A stretch of DNA of 54,809 nt from Sandaracinaceae bacterium (GCA_044220955.1 JBGAQA010000041.1:1-54809), one strand, 5' to 3'. Positions 1 to 13,064 are shown, counted from the first letter of the stretch. Numbers and translations are program-made. Notes: a model not told the origin generated them from the letters alone.

Positions 1-163
1 GGGGGCCAATGGTTTCTGCCCCGCGTTGGGGCCAACGACGCGGCCCCGCCGCTTCGCGTCGGCGAGGGGCGCCCCCCTCGCGCTCCCCGATCTCGACTCG
101 GTAACCCTGTGCCGATTGACCTCCACGCCGATCGCTGGCCTCATCGTCCTGGACGCGGAGGTC

Positions 164-179
164 TGGCATGCGCTCTGCT
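164..179 (+). promoter_or_regulatory. sigma54 (-24/-12) promoter of the RHS toxin gene
   Basis: TGGCATGCGCTCTGCT: GG 165-166, 10 nt, GC 177-178; close to consensus TGGCAC-N5-TTGCW; 77 nt upstream of GTG 256. Confidence 0.65.
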
Positions 180-201
180 CGTTCGTTCGTTCGTTCGTTC
201 G
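179..201 (+). repeat. (TCGT)n tetranucleotide microsatellite, ~5.75 units
   Basis: tcgttcgttcgttcgttcgttcg read directly, immediately after the -12 element. Confidence 0.9.
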
Positions 202-255
202 AAGAAGCCCCCGACCGCGCTTGCTGCGAGCGTCGCCTCGCGTCGCGGTGGTCCC

Positions 256-3200
256 GTGAGCGTCGTTCGCCGAGCCTTCCCGTTCGCGCTCGCGACCCTC
301 ATCGCGTGTGCGGGTGAGCTCCCCGAGATCGCGGGCACGGCGGCGAATCTGGACGGGTTGCCGGAGGACTGGCTCACGAACGCCGTGGTCGCGCCCGAGG
401 GCCACCCCGGCTGGACGTCGGGAGTCCTCGAGGTGACGGCCGATGGCGCCGCGACCTACGACGTGCCGATCTGGGCGCCTCCCGGTCGCGCGGGCGTGCA
501 GCCGAACCTCGCGCTGCACTACTCGAGCCGCGCCGGTGACAGCTCCCTCGGTGTGGGCTGGAGCCTCGCGGGGCTGTCCGCGATCACGCGCTGCGGGCGG
601 ACCGTTGCGATCGATGGAAGCGCGTCGCCGGTCGCCTGGGACGAGGACGTCTACTGCCTCGAGGGCCAGCGCCTCGTGCCTGCGGATCTCGGCCCCATCC
701 AGGGTCCGACCGGGAGGCTGAGGCCGCTGCAGAACGGGACCGAGTCCATCGAGATCATCGGCTCTTCGAGCGAGCCCACGGGGTTCGTCGTCCATCACGA
801 CAACGGTGTCGCGTACCACTACGGCCCGACGCTCGAGGGCGCTCCGCACGGGACGTCAGCGGGCATCCTGCGCGGCGCGCTGTGCGACCGGAACGGCGCA
901 GCGGGCACGTACGGATGGCTGCTTACGCGGGTGGAGGACCTCGCCGGAAACTTCATGACCGTCGAGTACGACGCGGTGGCTCCGTCGAGCGCGTCGCCCG
1001 TCAACGCAGTCATCGCGACCTTGAACGCGGCCGGGTGCCCGCCCGTCGAGGTGATCCCGACGCTCATGACCTACACCGGACACCAGGCGGTCGACAGCCA
1101 GGTCGTGCCCGGGCAGAGGAGCGTGCGCCTCCGGTACGAGTCCACGGGATTCCGGCAGCAGCTCCGGATGGTCAGCGGCCTGAGCCTCGCGACCACACGA
1201 TATCTCACGAGCGTCGAGAGCTACGGCCCCGATGGCCACCAGGCGAGGCGCTACGAGATCGGCAGCCCCGTCGGCGGTCCGACCGATCGCCGCACGATCA
1301 CCACCGTCCGCGAGTGCGCGGACGCCGTGTGCCGCGAGGCGCTGGAGTTCACGTACTCGACGTCGCGCTTCGCGAGCGGCGACATCGACCTGAACGCGAG
1401 CATCGCCACACAGGCCGCGGGGCTCGGCTACGTCGATGCCTACACGCAGACGAACTGGCCTGGCAATCAGGTCGCGCACGCCGACATCGACGGCAACGGC
1501 TCCGAGGAGATCCTCGTCCCCGGCAGCGCGCTGCTCCCGAGCTCGCCTAGCTGGATCGCGCTTCGCTACGAGCCGGCGCCGAGCCCGGCGCTGGTGCCGG
1601 ACTCGATCGACGTCCCCGCTGCGCGCTCTCTGATCCCGCTCGACGTCGATGCGGACGGCAGGCCGGAGATGCTCACTGCGGACACGTCCGGCGTCTCCAC
1701 GCTCTCGCTCGCGCGAGTCGGGGCGATCTCCGACACGATTCCGCGCTTCCGGCGCCGGTACCACGCATCGCCGGCCGGGGCCGCCTCGTCTCTCTGCCCC
1801 GCGGGCCAGGCGATGACGCTCGGGACGGTCGACCTGCAAGCGCTCGGGTTTCCGACCGTGCTGCGGCAGTGCGCGGCCCACACACCGGTCATCGGCTCGC
1901 CCGCCCTGCTCAGGCGCTCGCTCACGTGGTTCGCCGGTCTCTCGGGCGTGCCCATCGCGAACGAAGCGGACGCGATCGTCCCGGTCGACGACGCACTGCC
2001 GTCGCCTCTCGTGGCGTTCAACACGATCAGCCTCCGCGGCGATGGCCGCACGAGCACGCTCTATCAGCACCGGGTCGACACGATCAGTCCAGCATCCTCG
2101 ACCTCGTCCATCGTCGAGCTCGGCGCGGACCTCGTGCCGACCAACCTCGATCCCGCCGGGAGCTGGGTCTTCCTCGACGTCAACGGCGACGGCCTCACCG
2201 ACGCGCTCGACATCCAGAATGCGAGCCACGATCCCGCGGCGCGCTGGTCGCTGCGCCTCAACATGGGCGGCTACTTCGGCCCCGCAGTCGCCGCACTGCC
2301 GGTCGCATCGAGACCCGCCGAGTACGGCTACGTCATTCCTGCAGCCGTCCGGGTGGCCGACTTCGACGCGGACGGGTTCGCCGATCTCGGAGTCATCCTT
2401 CATCAGCGCACCTTCACGGGCGACACGCCTCCGCTCGACACGCTGGACGTGTACCGATGGACCGGCGCGGGCTACGCCCTGCTCGCCTCGCGACTGCCCG
2501 GCGGCTTCGCCGCGTTCAGCCGGCCGAACACGGGCTTCATCGGCGCGCTCCCCGAGCCGATCTCCTGGCCGCTGACGGAGGTGCTTGATGCCGACGGCGA
2601 CGGCGTCGCCGAGCTGATGTACGCGGTGCCGCGCGACCACTCGCTCCACCTCCGCCGGGTGTTCGAGGGTCGTCCCGGTCTGCTCGTGCGGGTGGAACGG
2701 TCGGGCCGTCAGCAAGTAGCGGTCACGTACGCGACGGCTCGCACCGCGCAAGGATCGTGCGCCCCGCTGAGCGACTCCGTGGCGTGCGGCGCGTCCGCGC
2801 TCGCGGTCGCGACGCACACGGACGAGCGCGGACTTCCCTATCGACACGAGTACGCGGGACCGCGCTTCGACGTCGCCGGCGGCGGGTGGCTCGGCTTCCT
2901 CCGGCACACCGTCATCGAGCCCTCGGCGTCGCCCTCCGAGGTTCGACGGACCGATACCTTCTACGAGGCGCCGGAGGACGATCTCGGTCCGGGGCCCGCG
3001 ACCGACGCTCGCCTCGGGAGGCGCTACGTCCGTGCGCGCCGCCCTCGCGCGGTGATCCAGACCACCGGCACGATCGGGCGCGGCGGCACCGTCGACGTGA
3101 GCGCGCGCTTCATCGAGTACTCGGTCGCGCCGGGGCCTTATCCGATCGCCCAGATCAGCGCGGTCCACGTCCGGCACTGGACCGACGTGCCGGGCTGGTC

Positions 3201-6200
3201 ACCGCCCGCCGTGGGCGATGCCGCGTACCTCACGGCGGACGATCCGCGCTCGCCGAATGCGGTGTACCTGAGCGGCTCGGCCGATCGGACGTTCCAGTAC
3301 GCGAGCTACGGCTTCGGTGTTCCGAGCGGGCCGGAGGCGGTCCGCGAGGTGACGGACGGCGTGGGCACGGTCACCGTCGGCATCGAGGCGTTCATGGACG
3401 TGGACCACTGGCTGCCCGCCGTGGTCACGCGCGCGAGCCTGACGAGCGAGACGCCCGACCACTTCTTCGAGACACGCACGACCGCGTTCGAGTGGGGCTA
3501 CGACGATCGTGCGAGGTGTCCCGCATCCTTGCGCGCGACCACGCGAGAGCCCGAGCCCGACGACGACAGCACCTACTACCAGCGTACCGAGCTGGGCCGC
3601 GACGAGTACTGCATGGTCACCTCGTCGAGGACGAGCGAGCTGACCGGCGCCGCGCCGCAGGAGAGCACCGTCGAGTACGACGAGGAGCGCCTCTTCCCCA
3701 GGCACCTCACGAGCGTGGCGGACGACGACACGCTGCTGGAGCACCTCGTCGGCGTCGAGCCGACGCTGGGCGTCCCGGTCATCACGGTCGACGCCAACGG
3801 CATCGCGACGCGCACCAGGTACGACGCGCTGGGCCGCGTGCGCAGCTCGGAAGGGCACGGACACAGGGTCGATATCGACTACCTCGGGATGACCAGCGGC
3901 GAGAGCGGCGACCGGATGGACATCCGCCGCATCCCGCGTGGAGGTGCGGAGGATCACACCTTCATCGACCAGTTCGGCCGCTCGCTCTCGCACACCGTGC
4001 GGGGCTTCGACGGCGTGATGGTGGCTGCCGCGAGCTACGATCCGCTCGGTCGCGTCAGCGGCGTCGCGGCGCCCTACTACGTCGGGCAGCGGCCCGGGGT
4101 GTCGCACTCCTTCACCTACGACGCGCTCGATCGCATCACGCGCGTCGACTTCAGCGATCACGGGCCGCCGATCCAGGTGAGGTACAAGGGCAACGTCGCC
4201 ATCTACACGGATCGGCGCGGGCACGTGTCGTTCACGCAGTCGGACGGCGCGGGCCGGCTGCTGATGACGGTGGACGGCGCGGCGGACTCCGCATCCCACG
4301 CGACGTTCGTGAAGTACACGTACGGGCCGTTCAGCAACATCCGCGAGATGCGAGACCAGTCGGGCTTCCTGTGGACGTGGCGGCACGATCGGTACGGCCG
4401 ACGGAGGCGCTCGCACGACCCCGACTCCGGCGACCGGTTCTACGGGTACGACGGCTTCGATCGGCTGGTCGAGGAGCTCGAGTCGGACGGCGGGCCGCGT
4501 CGCACGGCGTACCACTACGACCAGGTCTCGCGCGTGACGTCGATCGAGAGCGGCAACGACGGCGACACCGCGATGGTGTGGGACGACCCCGACGTCGGCC
4601 TGGGCCTGCTCGCGCGCACGGAGCGCGCGGGCAACGCCGAGCTCGATCGCGACGCGGTGGTCCGCAGCTACCTCTACGACGAGCTGGGGCGTCTCTCGAC
4701 CGAGACGACGACGGTGAACGAGGCCGAGACCTACCTGCTCGGCTATCGCTACGACGACGCGGGTCGGCTCGGCTCGATCACCTACCCCGGCGCGAGCGGC
4801 GGGCCCGGCCGCGAGATCACGTACGCGTACGAGACGTACTCGGGCATGGTGGAGGAGGTGCGCGAGGGCGAGCGGAGCCTGTGGACCGCGGAGGCGTACG
4901 ACGGGCAGGGCAGGCTGACGGCGGAGACGCTCGGAAACGGGACGCACACGTTCTACACGTACGGCGACGCGCACCAGGTCCCGTGGCTCGAGGACGTGCA
5001 GACGGTCGACGCGAGCGGGCGGCCGCTGATGGAGGTGGCCTACGACCACGACGAGGGCGGCAACGTCGTGTCGCGCGTGCACACGCTCGACCGGCCGGCG
5101 CGCGGCGCGGCGACGCGCTTCGACGAGCGCTACACGTACGACTCGCTCTCGCGCGTGCGGACACACCGCACGATCGGACGGCCGACCGAGTCCTTCGTGT
5201 ACGACGACCTCGGGAACCTCACCTACAACGCGGGGCAGACGCAGACGTACTCGCCGAGCGCGCCGCACCAGCTCGCCACCGCAGCCGGCACGACCGCCGT
5301 TCACGACGAGCGCGGACGGATGGAGATCGGCCCCGGCTTCACCGCGACGTACACGGACTTCGATCTGCCGCAGACGATGACGTCGACCGCGGCCGGCGGG
5401 ACGAGCGCCTCGTTCAGCTACGACGCGATGGGCGAGCGCGTGGTGAAGAACGAGCCGGGCGTCGCGCGCACGACGTACGTGCACGGCCTCTTCGAGCGAC
5501 GTCAGGTCGGCAACGCCGCGACCGACACCGTGAACGTCAGCGTGGGCGGCAGGGTGATCGCGCAGATCACGACCGCTCCGAGCGGTACGACGACGACGAG
5601 GTACGTGCACACCGACGGGCTCGGCTCGCCCACCGCCGTGACCGACGAGGGCGGCCTCGTGAGCGAGCGCTACCGCTACGGCGTGTTCGGCGCGCGCACG
5701 AGGGTCACGGCCAACGGCGCCCCGGTCGCGGAGTCGGCGCCCGCGGAGCGCGACGGCTTTACGAGCCACGGCGTCGACCCCGAGCTCGGCGCGATCGACA
5801 TGGGCGGCAGGATCTACCTCCCGTCCGTCGGCCGCTTCGCGACCCCGGACCCGCTCGTCGGCCAGCACAACCGCCAGGCCTGGAACAGCTACAGCTACGT
5901 CCTCAACAACCCCCTCACGTACACGGACCCGACGGGCCTGCAGTACGTCGACGACCTCTCGCACCCGGAGGATCTCTGGAACGCGGCGTGGGCGACCGCG
6001 GCCAGCTTCGTCGCCGGCTTGTGGGGCGGGGGAAGCAGCGGCTCGACGCAGGCGACGTCCGACCCGATGTCGGCCCGGACCGGCGGCGGAACCGGCCCAT
6101 CGACGGCGGCCCCGGTCGAGCCGCGGGCACCGAGCCCGGTCCCCATCACGCTCGACTCCGGCGGCTCCGGAAGCACCCTCCAGGGCGCGGACGCCGCGAT

Positions 6201-6933
6201 GCGATCGCCAGCGACCCAGGTCGCCGCCGTCCATCGCGAGGAGCGGCACGCGGCGGACTCCTTCGCCGACGGCGTGCTCGACGTCATCTCCGTGCCCGCT
6301 CAGAGCCCGGAGGAGGTCGTCCAGCGACTGCTCCACGCGGCGGTACCCGCGCTCGGTCCGATCGAGCAGGCGTACGCGGACTACCGAGACCCAGCCGCAG
6401 CAGAGGCGCGCGCGGACCAGCACCTCGTGAGAGCGGGCGTGATGGTCGACGCGATCGCAGCCGGCGACGTCGGGAACCCGACGCTGGTGAACACGGCCGC
6501 CGAGCTGCTGGGCACGGGCACCGTGATGGTCCTGACCGCGGCCCTCGGAGGCGCAGGTGGAGTCGAGGGAGAGCTCGCGGCCGCTGAAGGCGGGACGGCG
6601 GCGCGAGTCGGGGCGCTCCGCGACGCGATTCCGGCGGGCAGCCGTGGACGGATCACCATCGGCGTCGGCGTTGCGGAGGATGCAAGCGGGACTCGTCGGG
6701 TGCTCGTGGGCACCAGCGAGCCGCGAGGCTATCTGCGACCAGGCGTGACACTCGCGCCCGGCGAGACTCTTGCTCCCGGTCTGGGCCATGCCGAGATGGA
6801 CATCGTGACCTACGCAGACCAGAACGGACTCCGGCTTCTCGAGGTGGGCGCGACCCGACCCATTTGTCCGGCGTGTGCCGCTGCGATCGAGGCGGCCGGA
6901 GCAAGAGCGATTACTCCATTGAAGGTGCCGTGA
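256..6933 (+). CDS. Lipoprotein SpvB/FG-GAP/YD-RHS polymorphic toxin with C-terminal zinc-dependent deaminase-like domain
   Basis: GTG 256 gives signal peptide with lipobox LIAC (Cys codon 307). SpvB-like motif GAATYDVPIWAPPGRAGVQPNLALHYSS...LGVGWSL. FG-GAP-type DIDGNG/DVNGDG/DFDADG motifs and many YD repeats. RHS core end PDPL...SYVLNNPLTYTDPTG (to 5937). Tip has HAE (6787-6795) and PICPAC (Cys 6865, 6874). Confidence 0.9.
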   Translation: MSVVRRAFPFALATLIACAGELPEIAGTAANLDGLPEDWLTNAVVAPEGHPGWTSGVLEVTADGAATYDVPIWAPPGRAGVQPNLALHYSSRAGDSSLGVGWSLAGLSAITRCGRTVAIDGSASPVAWDEDVYCLEGQRLVPADLGPIQGPTGRLRPLQNGTESIEIIGSSSEPTGFVVHHDNGVAYHYGPTLEGAPHGTSAGILRGALCDRNGAAGTYGWLLTRVEDLAGNFMTVEYDAVAPSSASPVNAVIATLNAAGCPPVEVIPTLMTYTGHQAVDSQVVPGQRSVRLRYESTGFRQQLRMVSGLSLATTRYLTSVESYGPDGHQARRYEIGSPVGGPTDRRTITTVRECADAVCREALEFTYSTSRFASGDIDLNASIATQAAGLGYVDAYTQTNWPGNQVAHADIDGNGSEEILVPGSALLPSSPSWIALRYEPAPSPALVPDSIDVPAARSLIPLDVDADGRPEMLTADTSGVSTLSLARVGAISDTIPRFRRRYHASPAGAASSLCPAGQAMTLGTVDLQALGFPTVLRQCAAHTPVIGSPALLRRSLTWFAGLSGVPIANEADAIVPVDDALPSPLVAFNTISLRGDGRTSTLYQHRVDTISPASSTSSIVELGADLVPTNLDPAGSWVFLDVNGDGLTDALDIQNASHDPAARWSLRLNMGGYFGPAVAALPVASRPAEYGYVIPAAVRVADFDADGFADLGVILHQRTFTGDTPPLDTLDVYRWTGAGYALLASRLPGGFAAFSRPNTGFIGALPEPISWPLTEVLDADGDGVAELMYAVPRDHSLHLRRVFEGRPGLLVRVERSGRQQVAVTYATARTAQGSCAPLSDSVACGASALAVATHTDERGLPYRHEYAGPRFDVAGGGWLGFLRHTVIEPSASPSEVRRTDTFYEAPEDDLGPGPATDARLGRRYVRARRPRAVIQTTGTIGRGGTVDVSARFIEYSVAPGPYPIAQISAVHVRHWTDVPGWSPPAVGDAAYLTADDPRSPNAVYLSGSADRTFQYASYGFGVPSGPEAVREVTDGVGTVTVGIEAFMDVDHWLPAVVTRASLTSETPDHFFETRTTAFEWGYDDRARCPASLRATTREPEPDDDSTYYQRTELGRDEYCMVTSSRTSELTGAAPQESTVEYDEERLFPRHLTSVADDDTLLEHLVGVEPTLGVPVITVDANGIATRTRYDALGRVRSSEGHGHRVDIDYLGMTSGESGDRMDIRRIPRGGAEDHTFIDQFGRSLSHTVRGFDGVMVAAASYDPLGRVSGVAAPYYVGQRPGVSHSFTYDALDRITRVDFSDHGPPIQVRYKGNVAIYTDRRGHVSFTQSDGAGRLLMTVDGAADSASHATFVKYTYGPFSNIREMRDQSGFLWTWRHDRYGRRRRSHDPDSGDRFYGYDGFDRLVEELESDGGPRRTAYHYDQVSRVTSIESGNDGDTAMVWDDPDVGLGLLARTERAGNAELDRDAVVRSYLYDELGRLSTETTTVNEAETYLLGYRYDDAGRLGSITYPGASGGPGREITYAYETYSGMVEEVREGERSLWTAEAYDGQGRLTAETLGNGTHTFYTYGDAHQVPWLEDVQTVDASGRPLMEVAYDHDEGGNVVSRVHTLDRPARGAATRFDERYTYDSLSRVRTHRTIGRPTESFVYDDLGNLTYNAGQTQTYSPSAPHQLATAAGTTAVHDERGRMEIGPGFTATYTDFDLPQTMTSTAAGGTSASFSYDAMGERVVKNEPGVARTTYVHGLFERRQVGNAATDTVNVSVGGRVIAQITTAPSGTTTTRYVHTDGLGSPTAVTDEGGLVSERYRYGVFGARTRVTANGAPVAESAPAERDGFTSHGVDPELGAIDMGGRIYLPSVGRFATPDPLVGQHNRQAWNSYSYVLNNPLTYTDPTGLQYVDDLSHPEDLWNAAWATAASFVAGLWGGGSSGSTQATSDPMSARTGGGTGPSTAAPVEPRAPSPVPITLDSGGSGSTLQGADAAMRSPATQVAAVHREERHAADSFADGVLDVISVPAQSPEEVVQRLLHAAVPALGPIEQAYADYRDPAAAEARADQHLVRAGVMVDAIAAGDVGNPTLVNTAAELLGTGTVMVLTAALGGAGGVEGELAAAEGGTAARVGALRDAIPAGSRGRITIGVGVAEDASGTRRVLVGTSEPRGYLRPGVTLAPGETLAPGLGHAEMDIVTYADQNGLRLLEVGATRPICPACAAAIEAAGARAITPLKVP

Positions 6934-7364
6934 TGGAGCGGTTCCGGCTCGATGCCGTGGCGCCGATTGTCGGCGAGCGTTTTCGAAGGGCCGCTTCAAG
7001 CAAGCGTCGTCAGGCCGTGTACGTCGCCTGCGAAGGCGCCGTCGCTGCGGTCTCTCTCGCCGAACCCGAAGTCAGCGCCGCTCTCGCCATCCTTCGCGGA
7101 GCCGCCACCACCGACGTCACGCTTCTTCGCAGCCGGCTGGAGAGCCTTTCTGCCGGCTTCGACGACGAGTACTTCCGCCTGGAGGAAGACGGCGGAGCGT
7201 CTCAGAGACTGCGGGCCCTCCACTGCTTCTCGAAGGCCCGGGCAGCGTCTGCTCTGGCCTTCGCGCTCGATGACAGCAAGCTCCACGAGGCGATATACGA
7301 ATCGATTTCCGCACTCGAGGATCCGGCCGCGCTGGTGCGCCTGGTCGAACGCACCCTTGAGTAG
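6933..7364 (+). CDS. Candidate cognate immunity protein (143 aa, helical)
   Basis: ATG overlaps the toxin stop (TGATG); small gene directly after an RHS tip; shares the less GC-biased codon usage of the tip. Confidence 0.75.
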   Translation: MERFRLDAVAPIVGERFRRAASSKRRQAVYVACEGAVAAVSLAEPEVSAALAILRGAATTDVTLLRSRLESLSAGFDDEYFRLEEDGGASQRLRALHCFSKARAASALAFALDDSKLHEAIYESISALEDPAALVRLVERTLE

Positions 7365-7457: not shown

Positions 7458-7958
7458 GTGGACCGCCGAGGCGTACGACGGGCATGGCCGGCTGACGGCG
7501 GAGACGCTCGGGAACGGGACGCACACGTTCTACACGTACGGCGACGCGCACCAGGTGCCCTGGCTCGAGGACGTGCAGACGGTCGACGCGAGCGGGCGGC
7601 CGCTGATGGAGGTGGCCTACGACCACGACCAGGGCGGCAACGTCGTCTCGCGCGTGCTCACGCTCGACCGGCCGGCGCGCGGCGCGGCGACGCGCTTCGA
7701 CGAGCCCGGGTGGCACCGGGGTCACGAACGCCGCGGCCGGCACGACCGCCGTTCACGACGAGCGCGGGCGGATGGAGATCGGCCCCGGCTTCACCGCGAC
7801 GTACACGGACTTCGATCTGCCGCAGACGATGACGTCGACCGCGGCCGGCGGGACGAGCGCCTCGTTCAGCTACGACGCGATGGGCGAGCGCGTGGTGAAG
7901 GACGAGCCGGGCGTCGCGCGCACGACGTACGTGCACGGCCTCTTCGAGCGACGTCAGG
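7458..7958 (+). pseudogene. Degraded partial duplicate of the RHS core, no toxin tip
   Basis: 7458-7705 matches 4881-5128 and 7731-7958 matches 5279-5506, with scattered substitutions; 150 bp (5129-5278) replaced by 25 nt, causing a frameshift. Confidence 0.9.
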
Positions 7959-8293: not shown

Positions 8294-8644
8294 GTGGCCG
8301 TGCTGAACGCCCTGCTTCGCGCACTCTGCTTCCTCTTCCTCGCCTCCGCCGCCGCGGGGTGCGGGCCCGTCTGGTACACGGCCGAGATCATCTCCGCGGG
8401 CTCCATCGTGTCCGAGGCGGAGCACGCCGACGCGACCGAGCACGCGCCCTACGAGTACTGGATCGCGCGCGAGTACTACAACAAGGCCCAGGAAGAGGCG
8501 GGCGGCGGCAGCTACGAGGACGCCGTCCACTACGCGCAGGAGGCCCACCGTTACGCGACCGAGGCGCGCGACCACGCACGCGCGCGCATGCGCGACGACC
8601 TCGCCTCCGGCCGCGCCGGGACGCGTCACGGAGACGACGACTGA
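8294..8644 (+). CDS. DUF4398-family lipoprotein
   Basis: Lipobox AAGC; A..HAPYEY..AREY..KA.EEA motif; coupled to the OmpA gene. Confidence 0.8.
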   Translation: MAVLNALLRALCFLFLASAAAGCGPVWYTAEIISAGSIVSEAEHADATEHAPYEYWIAREYYNKAQEEAGGGSYEDAVHYAQEAHRYATEARDHARARMRDDLASGRAGTRHGDDD

Positions 8645-9747
8645 TGACGGCGCGCCTCCTCCGGGTCGCCGGGCCCGCGCTCGTGCTCTTCGCCCTCGCG
8701 TGCGGCCAGGGCGCGGTCCTGCAGGGCCGGATCTCGGGAACGCGCGAGATCGTCGACCAGGCCGAGCGCAACGGCGCGCGCGTCTGTGCCCCGCGCGAGC
8801 TCGCCGTGGCTCGCGCCAACCTCGAGTTCGCCGAGCGCGAGATCGCCCAGGGCGACCCCATCCGCGCGCAGCAGCACTTCGACCTCGCGGAGCCGAACGC
8901 GCGCGCCGCGCTGCACATGACCGATCCGGAGCGCTGCCTCGAGCACGAGCCCGAGCCGCCTCCGCCGCCCGCGCCGGGCGATCGCGACGGCGACGGGATC
9001 CTCGACCCGGACGACCAGTGCCCCGACGTCCCCGAGGATCGCGACGGCTTCCAGGACGAGGACGGCTGCCCCGAGACCCAGGACTCGGACGGCGATGGCC
9101 TCGACGACGACCACGACCTGTGCCCCGCGGAGCCCGAGGACGCGGACGGCTACCAGGACGCCGACGGCTGCCCCGAGCTCGACAACGACGTCGACACCAT
9201 CCTCGACACGGCCGACCACTGCCCGAACGAGCCCGAGGACCGCGACGGCCACCGCGACGACGACGGCTGCCCGGACCTCGACAACGACGGCGACGAGATC
9301 AACGACGCCATCGACCAGTGCCCGAACGAGCCCGGCCTGCCGCCCGAGCAGGGCTGCCCGCGCGTCTACCAGGACGTCGAGGTCACGAGCGAGGGCATCG
9401 TCATCCACCAGCAGGTCTTCTTCGTCACGGATCGCGCCACGATCCGCCCGGAGAGCCACGCGATCCTCGACACGGTCGCGCAGGTCATGCGCGACTTCCC
9501 GGACATCTCGATCGAGGTCCAGGGCCACACCGACAGCCGCGGCAACGACCGCCACAACATGCAGCTCTCGCAGGCGCGCGCCGACTCGGTCCGCACCTAC
9601 CTGATGCAGCAGGGCATCAGCGGCGACCGCATGACCGCGCGCGGCTACGGCGAGACCATGCCGATCGAGGACAACGCGACCGACCAGGGCCGCAGCATGA
9701 ACCGCCGCGTCGAGTTCCACCGCACCGACAGCCGCGCCGCGCAGTAG
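8644..9747 (+). CDS. OmpA-family lipoprotein with DUF4398 domain and thrombospondin type-3 (Ca-binding) repeats
   Basis: ATG overlaps upstream TGA; lipobox ALAC; DxDGDG..D..DxCP..PED repeats; OmpA_C motifs QGHTDSRG...LSQARA...NRRVEF. Confidence 0.92.
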   Translation: MTARLLRVAGPALVLFALACGQGAVLQGRISGTREIVDQAERNGARVCAPRELAVARANLEFAEREIAQGDPIRAQQHFDLAEPNARAALHMTDPERCLEHEPEPPPPPAPGDRDGDGILDPDDQCPDVPEDRDGFQDEDGCPETQDSDGDGLDDDHDLCPAEPEDADGYQDADGCPELDNDVDTILDTADHCPNEPEDRDGHRDDDGCPDLDNDGDEINDAIDQCPNEPGLPPEQGCPRVYQDVEVTSEGIVIHQQVFFVTDRATIRPESHAILDTVAQVMRDFPDISIEVQGHTDSRGNDRHNMQLSQARADSVRTYLMQQGISGDRMTARGYGETMPIEDNATDQGRSMNRRVEFHRTDSRAAQ

Positions 9748-9793
9748 TCGCCGCCCGGGAGTCTGCGGCCGCGGGGTGCGGGAGCCCCGGGGG

Positions 9794-9805
9794 TGTGTAT
9801 ACTCA
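9794..9805 (+). promoter_or_regulatory. -10 box (TATACT) overlapping a palindromic operator of the TA operon
   Basis: TGTGTATACTCA imperfect palindrome with GTATAC core; ATG 9 nt after the -10 box. Confidence 0.55.
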
Positions 9806-9812
9806 GGCGCCT

Positions 9813-10079
9813 ATGCCGCGCCTCCAGGTCTACCTGCCCGACGAGCTCCACCGGAAGGCGAAGGAGCTCGGCCTGCCGGCCTCGAAGCTCCTGCAGGACG
9901 CGATCCGCGACGCGATCCGCCGCCGTGCGCTCGCGACGGAGATGGATCGGTATCTGGCCGGGCTCCGCGCCGAGGTGGGCGAGCCGACCAAGGCACAGAA
10001 GGCCCGGGCGACGGCGAAGGCGAGGCGCATCCTCGGCAAGGACCGGAAGGCGGCCATCCGCTCGACTCGCGCCGCGTGA
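9813..10079 (+). CDS. Type II antitoxin, ribbon-helix-helix (CcdA/VapB-like)
   Basis: MPRLQVYLPDELHRKAKELGLPASKLLQDAI RHH pattern; GTGA overlap with the PIN gene. Confidence 0.8.
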   Translation: MPRLQVYLPDELHRKAKELGLPASKLLQDAIRDAIRRRALATEMDRYLAGLRAEVGEPTKAQKARATAKARRILGKDRKAAIRSTRAA

Positions 10080-10459
10080 GCACCGTCGTGCTCGACTCGG
10101 GTGGCCTCAGTGCGCTCGTCGAGCGCGACCCGGCCGCGCTCGCGCTGATCGAGGCGCTTCGTTCGGAGGGCGCCGACGCGTTCGTCGTGTCCACCGTCGT
10201 GCTTGTCGAGGCGCTGCGGGGCGATGCCCGTGACGCCACCACGAACCGCTTCTTGCGCGGCTGCGAGATCATCGAAGCCGTCCCGGAGCCACTCGCCCGG
10301 CGCGCCGCGCGCCTTCGAGCCCGCGCCCGGCGCGGATCCGCTGTGGACGCGCTGCTCGTGGCGCTCGCCGAGGGCGGCGGCGTGGTCGTGACCTCCGACC
10401 TCGAAGACCTGAGCGCGCTCGCGGCCTACGCCGATCGGGTCCGCGTCGAGCGGGTCTGA
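10076..10459 (+). CDS. vapC: PIN-domain (VapC-like) toxin
   Basis: VVLDSGGL...VLVE...SAVDALLVA...VVTSDLEDL acidic PIN motifs. Confidence 0.85.
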   Translation: MSTVVLDSGGLSALVERDPAALALIEALRSEGADAFVVSTVVLVEALRGDARDATTNRFLRGCEIIEAVPEPLARRAARLRARARRGSAVDALLVALAEGGGVVVTSDLEDLSALAAYADRVRVERV

Positions 10460-10493
10460 GCCAGGTCCCCTTCCTCGACCTCGCCTCCTGGGC

Positions 10494-11795
<1,302 letters not shown>

Positions 11796-11801
11796 CCGGA
11801 C

Positions 11802-13064
11802 ATGGGTGATCTCCGCGACAGCATGTCGGACGCGCAGGGCCCGATCGCGTTCCTGCGATCCCCGTCCACGATCCGCGCGCGCGCCCGCGAGGTGCTCGAC
11901 CTCGGCCTGGCCGGCAAGCTCGATCACTTCGAGGTGAGGCTCGACGCGCTCGACCGCGTCGTCGCGCGGACGCTCGCGGTCACGCGCGCGGCATACCCGA
12001 CCCTGAAGATCCCCTGCCACTCCCGCTGGAACCACTTCCGCGCCGGTGGTGTCGATCGCGTCGCGGACTTCGAGCGGCGGATCGCGCACCTGCCGATCGA
12101 CGAGCAGGCGCGCGCGCGCTTCGCGCTCGCGATCACGAGCGTGCTCCTCGACGCGGGCGCCGGGCCCGAGTGGAAGTACCGCGAGCCGGGCACGGGCCAG
12201 GTGTTCGCGCGCAGCGAGGGGCTCGCGGTCGCGAGCTACCACATGTTCGTGGACGGGCTCTTCTCGTCGGACAAGAAGAGCCCGTACCGCGCCGACGCCG
12301 ACGGCCTGGAGCAGCTCGACGGGATGAAGCTCGGTGCGGCCTTCCAGGCCTCGGGCAAGAACCCGATGGTGGGCCTCGAGGGACGCGCCGACCTGCTCGG
12401 CCGGCTGGGCTCGGCGATGCGCGCGACGCCGCGCTTCTTCGGCGAGGCCGGGCACGAGCCGCCGCGCGTGGGCCGGCTCTTCGACGCTTGCCTCGCGCGC
12501 GTCGAGGATGGACGCATCCCCGCGCGCAGGATCCTCTTCGTCGTGCTCGAGGGCCTCGGGCCCATCTGGCCGGGGCGCATCGAGCTGCTCGGCGTGAACC
12601 TCGGCGACGTCTGGAAGCACGGCAAGGTCGGCGGGCCGACCATCACCATGGGCCTGGTGCCCTTCCACAAGCTCTCGCAGTGGCTGACGTACTCGCTCAT
12701 CGAGCCGCTCGAGCAGGCGGGCGTGCGGGTCATCCGCAGCGACGAGCTCACGGGCCTCGCGGAGTACCGCAACGGCGGCCTCTTCGTGGACGACGGCGTG
12801 CTCGTCCCGAAGCACGCGGACGTGCTGACGAAGGTGTGGGCGCCCGGCGACGAGGTGATCGTGGAGTGGCGCGCGCTCACGGTCGCGCTGCTCGACGAGG
12901 TCGGCCAGGCCGTGCGACGCGAGCTGGCGATGACGCCCCAGGAGCTCCCGCTCGCGAAGGTGCTCGAGGGCGGCACGTGGGCCGCGGGGCGCCAGGCCGC
13001 CCGGGAGAAGCGCGCCGACGGGACGCCGCCCATCACGGTCGAGAGCGACGGAACCGTGTTCTGA
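11802..13064 (+). CDS. URC4/Urg3 family protein (DUF1688)
   Basis: HSRWNHF, SVLLDAGAG, RSEGLAVAS, FHKLSQWLTYSL, LAEYRNGGL, VLEGGTW, SDGTVF motifs. Confidence 0.92.
   Translation: MGDLRDSMSDAQGPIAFLRSPSTIRARAREVLDLGLAGKLDHFEVRLDALDRVVARTLAVTRAAYPTLKIPCHSRWNHFRAGGVDRVADFERRIAHLPIDEQARARFALAITSVLLDAGAGPEWKYREPGTGQVFARSEGLAVASYHMFVDGLFSSDKKSPYRADADGLEQLDGMKLGAAFQASGKNPMVGLEGRADLLGRLGSAMRATPRFFGEAGHEPPRVGRLFDACLARVEDGRIPARRILFVVLEGLGPIWPGRIELLGVNLGDVWKHGKVGGPTITMGLVPFHKLSQWLTYSLIEPLEQAGVRVIRSDELTGLAEYRNGGLFVDDGVLVPKHADVLTKVWAPGDEVIVEWRALTVALLDEVGQAVRRELAMTPQELPLAKVLEGGTWAAGRQAAREKRADGTPPITVESDGTVF

Follow-up and report, generated by a model that had tools for sequence, protein, structure and literature searches.

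A probable deaminase toxin-immunity pair of an unnamed clade at the tip of an Rhs protein, and its proposed kinship to EspK and Rv3899c

With fair though not high confidence, we read two genes in a 54,809-nucleotide stretch of Sandaracinaceae DNA (the window; Table 1) as an interbacterial polymorphic toxin and its immunity protein, most likely acting by deamination of DNA cytosine. The pair is a clade of its own, belonging with neither DddA, SsdA nor DddB. We think it probable that the pair founds a widespread clade of ~110-aa deaminase toxins that has no name yet, and that the C-terminal 'sea-snail' domain of EspK, Rv3899c and DUF5632/DUF5631 descend from it. Toxin deaminases have been the source of mitochondrial base editors and of enzymes for methylation sequencing and footprinting. 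The present toxin clade lies outside the Pfam models that supplied candidates to the published screens considered here; it is large and comes with a natural off-switch, the immunity protein, which makes its substrate and sequence preference of interest.

Table 1. Features of the locus, with positions counted from the first base of the window
Feature	Position	Strand	Basis
Rhs/YD carrier: SpvB-like N-terminus, FG-GAP repeats, RHS repeats	256..5937	+	Pfam
DPTG, end motif of the Rhs core (PxxxxDPxG type)	5926..5937	+	sequence
Gly/Ser/Pro-rich, then helical linker / pre-toxin region of the tip	5938..6588	+	sequence
Moderately hydrophobic segment TAAELLGTGTVMVLTAALGG	6493..6552	+	Kyte-Doolittle
Zinc deaminase toxin domain, 114 aa, unnamed clade	6589..6933	+	motif, homologues, predicted fold
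Clade signature TSEPxGYLRPGV: end of strand 2 and insert before helix 2	6712..6747	+	conservation
HAE: zinc-ligand His67, catalytic Glu69	6787..6795	+	conservation
CPAC: zinc ligands Cys93 and Cys96	6865..6876	+	conservation
Cognate immunity protein, 143 aa, all-helical, SsdAI/DUF416-like predicted fold	6933..7364	+	linkage, model
Two near-identical Rhs core remnants without a new tip	7458..7958	+	sequence self-comparison

Carrier protein and tip

The toxin is the C-terminal end of an SpvB/FG-GAP/RHS protein of about 2,230 residues (open frame 1/109..6933, plus strand), in which SpvB, FG-GAP_3, FG-GAP and RHS_repeat all exceed the Pfam cut-off. No stop interrupts the frame from base 1 onward, and its earliest GTG is at 109; GTG 256 appears the likelier start, and a lipoprotein-signal-like stretch with a Cys at its end (265-309) lies just after it. 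Third-position GC content (GC3) is 0.63 over positions 1-180, against about 0.9 within the carrier gene.

As is characteristic of Rhs polymorphic toxins, the RHS/YD repeats terminate in a DPxG motif ahead of a variable tip, and in a same-genus relative a related end of the Rhs core bears another tip. The DPxG-type motif at the end of Rhs cores has a role in autocleavage. The tip that follows it measures 330-331 aa, in agreement with the original observation of about 330. Downstream, one core remnant (7458-7705) is 96% identical to 4881-5128 and the other (7731-7958) 99% identical to 5279-5506, representing either a recombination scar or an assembly artefact. No second toxin or immunity copy was found in the window's own assembly, which is 87.9% complete.

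The linker is not common to other carriers of the same toxin: a blastp search with its 216 residues against 59 homologous frames gave a single weak match (E 7.5e-4). The hydrophobic helix that had been proposed within the tip is present as a segment, but its hydrophobicity is moderate only; with a best 19-residue Kyte-Doolittle mean of 1.41, it is not a clear transmembrane helix, and might at best serve in membrane entry. The change in codon usage first noted near 6560 is real. GC3 runs at 0.82-1.0 within the carrier between positions 361 and 5940 (60-codon windows) and at 0.80-0.97 over most of the linker (30-codon windows), falls to 0.57-0.77 from window 6511-6600 onward, and is 0.75 in the gene after the toxin; the drop places the swap boundary at about 6510-6560.

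The delivery systems that carry this domain are diverse. It is C-terminal on Rhs, Rhs plus PT-HINT, TPS/haemagglutinin/DUF637 (CdiA-type), PT-VENN and T7SS_signal carriers, in a survey that gave a Pfam match in 15 of the 31 frames scanned. One toxin domain is thus common to unrelated delivery systems, as is typical of polymorphic toxins.

The deaminase domain and its place among known clades

The terminal domain has exactly 23 residues between HAE and CPAC, as first noted from the sequence. Shuffling the tip 20,000 times produced an HxE-(15-35)-CxxC pattern only 3 times; the motif is beyond chance. Across 143 aligned homologues, Glu69, Cys93 and Cys96 are invariant and His67 is kept in 140, so that all four zinc and catalytic residues are intact together in 140/143; the clade comprises 615 clusters at 50% identity. 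The AlphaFold2 model (pLDDT 95.8) has the order helix-strand-strand-helix-strand-helix, with helices at 68-78 and 94-102; HxE lies within helix 2, and CxxC opens helix 3. In the VIA structural search, the first 26 rows for this model comprise EspK, SPD_0310 and 24 deaminases or proteins with a recognised deaminase fold, and Z is 5.4-7.5 against more than 20 deaminase-fold entries. The zinc motif, the predicted fold and these matches bear out the proposed membership in the CDA superfamily. Foldseek, the suggested check, agreed in that its top rows were all of the CDA fold, but with E values of at least 0.011 none reached 0.001.

The expectation of a poorly characterised clade unlike DddA also held: no Pfam or NCBIfam model captures the toxin clade, the domain having no family match near the curated cut-off in Pfam and nothing relevant in NCBIfam. 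Searches of PDB sequences with the toxin, toxin profiles and the immunity protein gave no significant match; one to FtsZ at E 0.026 was dismissed as chance. The first ESM Atlas matches for both proteins are unnamed clusters. The clade's motif strings were absent from the literature text searched, and the PMC11754093 supplement contained no relevant row. Near-identity to a characterised deaminase, which would have voided the novelty, was not found within these searches. What did not survive is the description of the domain as very compact or miniature. About 110 aa is not unusual for the class and gives no size advantage over DddB, of which a construct of residues 1952-2060 was crystallised, as PMC13346905 describes; the DddB chain used for comparison (9k3e_B) has 108 residues.

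SsdA (BaDTF2, DYW-like clade; Pseudomonas syringae) is likewise a polymorphic-toxin deaminase with HxE and CxxC, and its insert after strand 2 meets an all-helical immunity protein (PMC7901873), as is predicted here. It nevertheless aligns with the toxin at a Z of only 6.0 and 14% identity, without a sequence match; SsdA has HxEK, and SGW after strand 2, where the present clade has HAEM/HAEA and TSEPxGY, and the insert is much shorter than that of SsdA. With DddA (BaDTF1, SCP1.201 clade; Z 6.1, 20% identity) the toxin shares the CDA fold, Rhs-type tip delivery and adjacent immunity. By the features in Table 1 of Iyer 2011, however, it has neither the [HD]xEx[KQ] motif nor an Asn closing strand 3, its consensus being HAExD and VGATR, and its immunity protein is all-helical where that of DddA is Imm1-type alpha+beta. 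DddB (BaDTF3, Pput_2613 clade; Taylorella) has the same ~110-aa size and the same 23-residue HxE-CxxC spacing, but a Z of 5.4 over 72 residues; its HTE and PCxxCK are absent (A68 in 140/143, I/V before C93), as is its helix-hairpin-helix insert from the toxin model.

The MafB19 clade of Iyer et al. (2011) shares HxE, +xxCxxC (here R90-P-I-C) and a Gly before strand 4. R90 is kept in 139/143 homologues, and the consensus after helix 3 is AGA. Strand 2 does not close with that clade's Asn, T42, S43 and E44 standing there in 140, 142 and 143 of 143, and the clade's immunity proteins are SUFU or SUKH rather than helical, as judged from the published description; by profile, the toxin may still be a member. 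The Pfam MafB19-deam model is a different, TadA-like profile that retrieved housekeeping TadA-type genes, and served as a control only. OTT_1508_deam gives 15.6 bits against a Pfam cut-off of 27 and matches 27 of 50 clade members with E values no higher than 0.5, the lowest being 0.0011. That clade has GxxK before CxxC where ours has GxxR, and its extended loop after strand 4 and helix 4 are absent, the toxin ending about 12 residues past helix 3. Deam_C (PF24241) and MsddA-like (PF24174) matched none of 50 clade members at E up to 0.5. The toxin profile reached Prob 38.7 (E 3e-4) with four Deam_C sequences, on the shared zinc motifs; Deam_C was not found in 5 genomes. The search for MsddA-like in 296 genomes was uninformative, giving no match.

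Immunity partner and likely substrate

The gene that follows, whose ATG overlaps the toxin stop, is the immunity partner of the toxin, by observed linkage and predicted binding. A profile search found a homologue at 58/59 toxin loci, and at 40/41 outside the profile's seed; the single protein as query matched at 33/59. The predicted toxin-immunity complex scored 0.89 against 0.00 for the best of three controls, a mark reached by 116/157 solved pairs and 2/215 mismatched pairs, although part of the score may stem from resemblance to the solved SsdA-SsdAI complex. Runs share at least 90% of contacts, with a pLDDT of 92 for the partner. On the toxin, the predicted interface comprises residues 44-49 and 51-57, within TSEPxGYLRPGV, which would make this signature the immunity-binding surface; it is also likely to be a substrate-selecting element. 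The immunity model has the all-helical character of SsdAI-type proteins and resembles the SsdA immunity protein (7jtu_B) with a VIA Z of 8.7, rmsd 3.2 and 120 aligned, a value that for a helical bundle lies within what VIA calls common; DUF416 (Z 9.1) and EspK (Z 8.2) are tied with it. Foldseek missed these similarities, with no match for the immunity model at E 0.001.

By analogy, we favor cytosine in DNA as the substrate. DddA, SsdA and DddB, characterised toxin deaminases with immunity genes, are DNA cytosine deaminases, and the insert that they have after strand 2 and before helix 2 holds substrate-selecting elements, according to PMC13346905 and PMC7901873. In the mechanism that we propose, the Rhs shell would enclose the tip, with a signal peptide and a lipid anchor probably serving the protein's export and attachment, and the tip would be cut off at the DPxG motif and then enter a rival cell. 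Release by cutting at this motif is established for Rhs tips. One zinc would be bound via H67, C93 and C96, and E69 would activate water for hydrolytic deamination, a chemistry general to the CDA superfamily. Conversion of DNA cytosine to uracil may then lead to C-to-T mutation and repair-driven death, while the producer would be shielded by the 143-aa helical protein, predicted to clamp the insert TSEPxGYLRPGV next to the active site.

With a net charge of +2 (median 0 across 113 nearly full-length homologues), the toxin domain is not basic, which is unusual for a DNA binder. Neutral charge would suit a toxin that poisons the nucleotide pool by deaminating a free nucleoside or nucleotide (e.g., dCTP, CTP, ATP or GTP), and the enzymes with the top structural-search scores do act on small substrates: blasticidin S deaminase (Z 7.5), cytidine deaminase (7.3), guanine deaminase (7.0) and dCMP/dCTP deaminase (6.8) all stand above the DNA deaminase toxins DddA (6.1), SsdA (6.0) and DddB (5.4). 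However, a higher Z may merely reflect a minimal core without large inserts, invariant Y48/R50 and R90 with conserved R6/R21/K112 near the site would fit a polymeric substrate, and those three characterised toxins act on DNA; we hold poisoning of the pool to be improbable. Deamination of RNA by the same pair (tRNA, rRNA or mRNA; C-to-U or A-to-I), blocking translation, is somewhat less so, if still unlikely. TadA/ADAT structures score like DddA and SsdA (2b3j, Z 6.2; 7bv5, 6.0), RNA activity is known for some screened toxin deaminases, and the toxin's insert contains a Pro-Gly pair. Pro-Gly between S2 and H2 is among the features of RNA-editing DYW proteins listed by de Moraes et al. (PMC7901873), though the likeness may be chance. 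Profile-profile similarity to TadA-type sequences is nevertheless poor (Prob 6.3), the C-terminal helices of TadA are missing from the model, and SsdA, which has the shared immunity fold, shows only residual RNA activity, according to PMC7901873. Finally, catalytically dead relatives exist and are conserved, and the tip could in principle be a nonworking relic with a zinc-binding or adhesion role. This we consider very improbable, given that the four residues are present here and in 140/143 homologues, that the immunity gene is intact and that the dead copies group apart, in a long-branched clade of their own.

Relation to EspK and Rv3899c

The more surprising part of our results is a structural link to EspK and Rv3899c. 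The best structural match of the toxin is Mycobacterium tuberculosis EspK 488-601 (8ako_B; Z 10.3, rmsd 2.5, 101 aligned), the only one with a Z of at least 8 among 48,161 chains. EspK 614-723 is in turn matched by the immunity model (Z 8.2, rmsd 2.9, 98 aligned), and the two matches follow the gene order along a single chain. Rv3899c (5imu; DUF5632 plus DUF5631) has the same order, with the toxin at 198-277 (Z 4.3) and the immunity protein at 301-402 (Z 5.4). In both proteins the shell domain corresponds to the toxin fold and the foot domain to the immunity fold. EspK is a single-chain chaperone for EspB, and its C-terminal fold has been described as specific to mycobacteria.

The putative sequence link is transitive and leads to Rv3899c only, via one family (L079-L084) that compares with the toxin profile at Prob 72.9 (E 3.1e-5) and in turn with 5imu at E 9e-4 and with DUF5632 proteins at Prob 96.4. 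Direct profile comparisons were not significant for toxin with DUF5632 (Prob 1.1), for the dead family with DUF5632 (0.2), or for the immunity profile with the DUF5631 part (0.2) or the L079-L084 family (0.2). Sequence and profile searches with the toxin and immunity protein gave no direct match to EspK, nor did L081 and L144 match it in the PDB. A search of 5 actinobacterial genomes did not turn up DUF5631. The DUF5632/5631 proteins were rejected as EspK orthologues, as their match is to Rv3899c (E 1e-48) rather than to EspK, and the DUF5632-type sequences examined are without the zinc ligands.

On balance, EspK's C-terminal domain is rather likely to be a domesticated toxin-immunity fusion. 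In this scenario, a type VII-secreted deaminase would have lost its zinc site and kept the insert that binds the immunity protein, and the disarmed deaminase, fused to the immunity gene, would have been reused as an ESX-1 secretion chaperone. Such a fused, disarmed pair would give an origin for an ESX-1 component and explain its two-domain shape, assign an ancestry to DUF5632/DUF5631, and provide a clear example of a weapon against other bacteria being recruited as a secretion chaperone. Surviving stages of this path may be seen in a one-chain form and in a dead two-gene cassette that has become fixed in Williamsia and its relatives. Catalytically dead two-gene copies do occur in the family of Williamsia, where the one-chain form is a probable toxin-immunity fusion and adjoins eccB on contig G066:C2.

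The Rhs carrier and its C-terminal tip

The window opens within, or only slightly ahead of, a long open frame (see table) that matches SpvB, FG-GAP_3, FG-GAP and RHS_repeat, all above the Pfam cut-offs. Since GC3 is only 0.63 in positions 1-180, we infer that a downstream GTG is the likelier start; a lipoprotein-signal-like stretch lies there at 256-309. The Pfam scan of the frame returned no PAAR match, so the Rhs protein may be exported otherwise than through the type VI system. Rhs proteins self-cleave at DPxG, and the tip considered here begins after such a motif. The original prediction described this tip accurately, as coordinates, shuffles and GC3 agree: 23 residues separate HAE from CPAC, a motif pair that 3 of 20,000 shuffled tips contained, and GC3 falls from about 0.9 in the carrier to 0.57-0.77 from about 6510-6560, with 0.75 in the next gene. 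The hydrophobic helix that it had also named is present as a segment, but is only moderately hydrophobic.

Features of the toxin locus and of a further family member
Feature	Position	Strand	Remark
Rhs carrier frame	1/109..6933	+	long open frame
Likelier start, GTG	256	+	short basic-hydrophobic stretch with terminal Cys follows
DPTG	5926-5937	+	tip starts after it
Gly/Ser/Pro-rich linker	within tip	+	from sequence
Moderately hydrophobic segment	6493-6552	+	best KD 19-mer 1.41
HAE	6787-6795	+	toxin motif
CPAC	6865-6876	+	toxin motif
Immunity ORF	6933-7364	+	start overlaps toxin stop
813-aa further family member	L149:8432-10870	-	about 4 kb upstream of eccB, 199-kb contig

A candidate clade of deaminase toxins and its immunity family

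The last 114 residues matched 65 proteins in a word-indexed search and, among 1.84 billion clusters, 615 representatives at E <=0.001 and 314 at 1e-10, with the match at or near the C terminus in nearly all of the 150 matches listed. E44, E69, C93 and C96 are invariant across 143 aligned homologues, H67, E69, C93 and C96 occur together in 140 of them, and the clade signature reads TSEPxGYLRPGV, then GxGHAE, then GA(T/G)RP(I/V)CxxC. No Pfam model came near its cut-off (best OTT_1508_deam, 15.6 bits against 27; touched by 27 of 50 clade members at E <=0.5, best E 0.0011), NCBIfam returned nothing relevant, and none of the three nearest ESM Atlas clusters has a name. The AlphaFold2 model (pLDDT 95.8) runs helix, strand, strand, insert, helix, strand, helix. 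In the Foldseek comparison that had been proposed as a check, all top rows were CDA-fold enzymes, but none reached E 0.001. VIA Z scores were 7.5 for blasticidin S deaminase, 7.3 for cytidine deaminase, 6.1 for DddA, 6.0 for SsdA and 5.4 for DddB.

We compared the domain with the clade features in Table 1 of Iyer et al. 2011 (PMC3239186). The motifs of the SCP1.201/DddA, DYW/SsdA and Pput_2613/DddB clades are absent from it. The MafB19 clade shares HxE, +xxCxxC and the Gly before strand 4, but has an Asn after strand 2 and SUFU/SUKH immunity, a separation that follows the description rather than the authors' profile; the OTT_1508 clade has GxxK where the toxin has GxxR, and the toxin lacks helix 4. 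The earlier suspicion of a poorly characterised clade is supported, with no Pfam or NCBIfam model fitting and the DddA motifs failing, whereas compactness, which had also been claimed for it, is no distinction, as DddB is equally small. The domain is predicted to act like the known toxin deaminases, yet is assigned to none of the named clades.

The immunity protein alone matched 33 of the 59 toxin loci by tblastn, and a profile seeded with it and 18 loci matched 58 of 59, including 40 of the 41 outside the seed; copies are in pieces at two loci (L013, L022). The one locus with no detected homologue was L049, an Actinoplanes Rhs copy (L049:10001-10417) with the altered motifs HAEN and CxxxC. 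D77, F99, A102, R103 and E123 are invariant in a 45-sequence alignment, and Pfam gave no meaningful match. The model is all-helical (pLDDT 96.9). Its first three VIA matches are DUF416 (Z 9.1), SsdA's immunity protein as solved in complex (8.7) and EspK (8.2); they are tied within 1 Z unit, at values common for helical bundles, although unrelated rows begin at 6.2. For the predicted toxin-immunity complex the score was 0.89, whereas the best of its three controls had 0.00. Of 157 solved pairs, 116 attain this mark, as do 2 of 215 mismatched ones; the runs agreed in 90% or more of their contacts, with a partner pLDDT of 92, although this result may partly reflect likeness to the solved SsdA-SsdAI complex. 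The predicted interface joins toxin residues 18, 21, 44-49, 51-57 and 61, the clade signature region, to conserved R5, D77, F99 and R103 of the partner. Toxin and partner are real and make a good candidate for an unnamed clade of deaminase toxins that has an immunity family to itself; supplements to enzyme screens may already include a member of the clade.

As a side observation, the DUF416 structural-genomics proteins 2q9r and 3f7c have the SsdAI-type fold (Z 9.1 and 7.6 to the immunity model), and this shared fold suggests that DUF416 is an immunity family. The Sddi inhibitors of PMC13034033 are DddI-like.

With carrier architecture, intact zinc site, fold and linked partner established here, we infer the delivery route of the tip and weigh its substrate by analogy. 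In CDA enzymes, a zinc-bound water is activated by Glu, as PMC13346905 describes for DddB. DNA cytosine would be the substrate we favour, as probable though far from assured: it is what DddA, SsdA and DddB deaminate, nearly all DNA-active enzymes of a 175-enzyme screen came from five toxin-derived families (10.1101/2023.06.29.547047), the immunity fold is common to SsdA's immunity protein, and the conserved insert sits where PMC13346905 places the substrate-selecting elements of those three enzymes. Two findings count against DNA. The domain is not basic (net charge +2; median 0 over 113 homologues), and small-molecule deaminases outscore the DNA deaminases structurally, which argues for the nucleotide pool; action on the pool nevertheless seems to us improbable, somewhat more so than action on RNA, itself unlikely. 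That the domain is non-enzymatic is the least credible reading.

A possible common origin with EspK and Rv3899c

Among 48,161 chains, the best match of the toxin model, and the only one at Z >=8, was M. tuberculosis EspK 488-601 (VIA Z 10.3, rmsd 2.5, 101 of 114 residues aligned). In a separate search, the immunity model matched what remains of that chain, residues 614-723 (Z 8.2, rmsd 2.9, 98 aligned), and Rv3899c showed the same toxin-then-immunity order more weakly (Z 4.3 and 5.4). In the portion of PMC9811218 available to us, this EspK domain is a two-part "shell and foot" with relatives found only in mycobacteria, and deaminases are not mentioned; literature searches that covered few subscription journals listed only a variation survey for EspK together with deaminase, and the two EspK passages of PMC11217815 draw no such link.

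In sequence searches, no query matched EspK, and 64 DUF5632/5631 sequences compared directly with the toxin profile and the immunity profile gave nothing significant (Prob 1.1 and 0.2). Weak DUF5632 matches in 6 of 121 genomes yielded a family of six long proteins, one encoded directly upstream of an EccA1-like gene. Alignment of the toxin profile with this family spanned 73 columns (Prob 72.9, E 3.1e-5) and scored 37, whereas the highest of 40 column shuffles was 21.1 and reversal gave 12.5. The family itself matches DUF5632 proteins (Prob 96.4) and, among PDB sequences, Rv3899c (E 9e-4). In one genome, G090, the only toxin-profile match at E <=1 was the domain of this family, with E 0.096; of the four genomes searched together, two had no match.

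In the 813-aa family member, the toxin profile matches the first half of the C-terminal region at 14.3 bits, a score reached by 0 of 2,000 shuffles, and the immunity profile matches the second half at 9.2 bits, reached by 3 of 2,000 (118 collinear columns, hhalign E 0.039), against 14 and 549 of 2,000 in crossed controls. Because the protein was picked without reference to immunity, the second half is an independent, though weak, match, and from its sequence the protein resembles a single-chain fusion of toxin and immunity. It has no Pfam match and lies upstream of NlpC/P60 and eccB, possibly in a plasmid ESX locus. At L048, a Solirubrobacterales MAG locus, a single frame (9767-10831) encodes a toxin with Arg where the zinc His should be and, after it, the immunity homologue, which is either a natural fusion or an assembly error.

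Dead copies occur at eight loci (L052-L059, seven from Williamsia), which keep the signature insert and Glu, lack His and both Cys, carry a helical N-terminal region in front and are followed by an immunity homologue. A profile built on these eight together with six active copies from actinobacteria found matches in 35 of the 201 genomes in Williamsia's family, four of them weak and partial. Of 20 loci returned, 15 were aligned, five near-duplicates excepted, and all 15 lack His and CxxC and keep Glu. An immunity match was present at 18 of the 20, a count that partly reflects the profile itself, which includes Williamsia sequences, and 18 had a YbaB/EbfC-type gene upstream. The insert may have outlasted the zinc site because it is the predicted immunity interface. 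In an unrooted tree of 56 rows (15 of the 59 loci omitted as duplicates or broken), a long, well-supported branch separates 40 active copies from the dead ones; with no root and possible long-branch effects, it is neutral on direction. In the eight long loci, trmD and rplS flank the cassette; the Williamsia one at L056:8520-11718 runs from a YbaB/EbfC-type gene through a gene of 116 aa, the dead deaminase and the immunity homologue to a membrane-like 325-aa gene with no Pfam match. A YbaB-type domain is likewise predicted for EspL, whose gene immediately precedes espK (PMC6319747).

Two ordered structural matches, the transitive sequence chain and the natural dead and fused forms together incline us towards common ancestry of the toxin/immunity pair and EspK/Rv3899c which, if true, is the part that would surprise a specialist.

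Carriers and genomic setting

The 59 loci span Myxococcota, Pseudomonadota, Planctomycetota, Actinomycetota, Cyanobacteriota and others, the closest to the window toxin being from Sorangium (81%). Pfam matched 15 of 31 carrier frames and left 16 without any match; eight are Rhs (three with PT-HINT), three are TPS/haemagglutinin-type, a second Burkholderia-type TPS match being counted among them, and others include one PT-VENN/DUF6862 and one T7SS_signal. Longer homologues carry the names of RHS-associated or haemagglutinin proteins. Ten cyanobacterial loci (L031, L032, L037-L040, L042, L043, L045, L051) have short stand-alone toxin frames, 136-210 aa from stop to stop, with immunity present, like orphan cassettes.

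The window's own assembly holds one copy each of toxin and immunity gene. Directly after the latter, 7458-7705 and 7731-7958 repeat Rhs core stretches 4881-5128 and 5279-5506 at 96-99% identity without a new tip, either a recombination scar or an assembly artefact. A same-genus Rhs protein (L072) has a related core end (44% over residues 1783-2034) and a different 375-aa tip with another C-terminal domain. A small possible toxin-antitoxin pair lies at about 9870-10460 (one frame tested, no Pfam confirmation), and ordinary neighbours occupy 8294-13064: DUF4398, OmpA with TSP_3 repeats, GTP cyclohydrolase II-like and DUF1688 genes.
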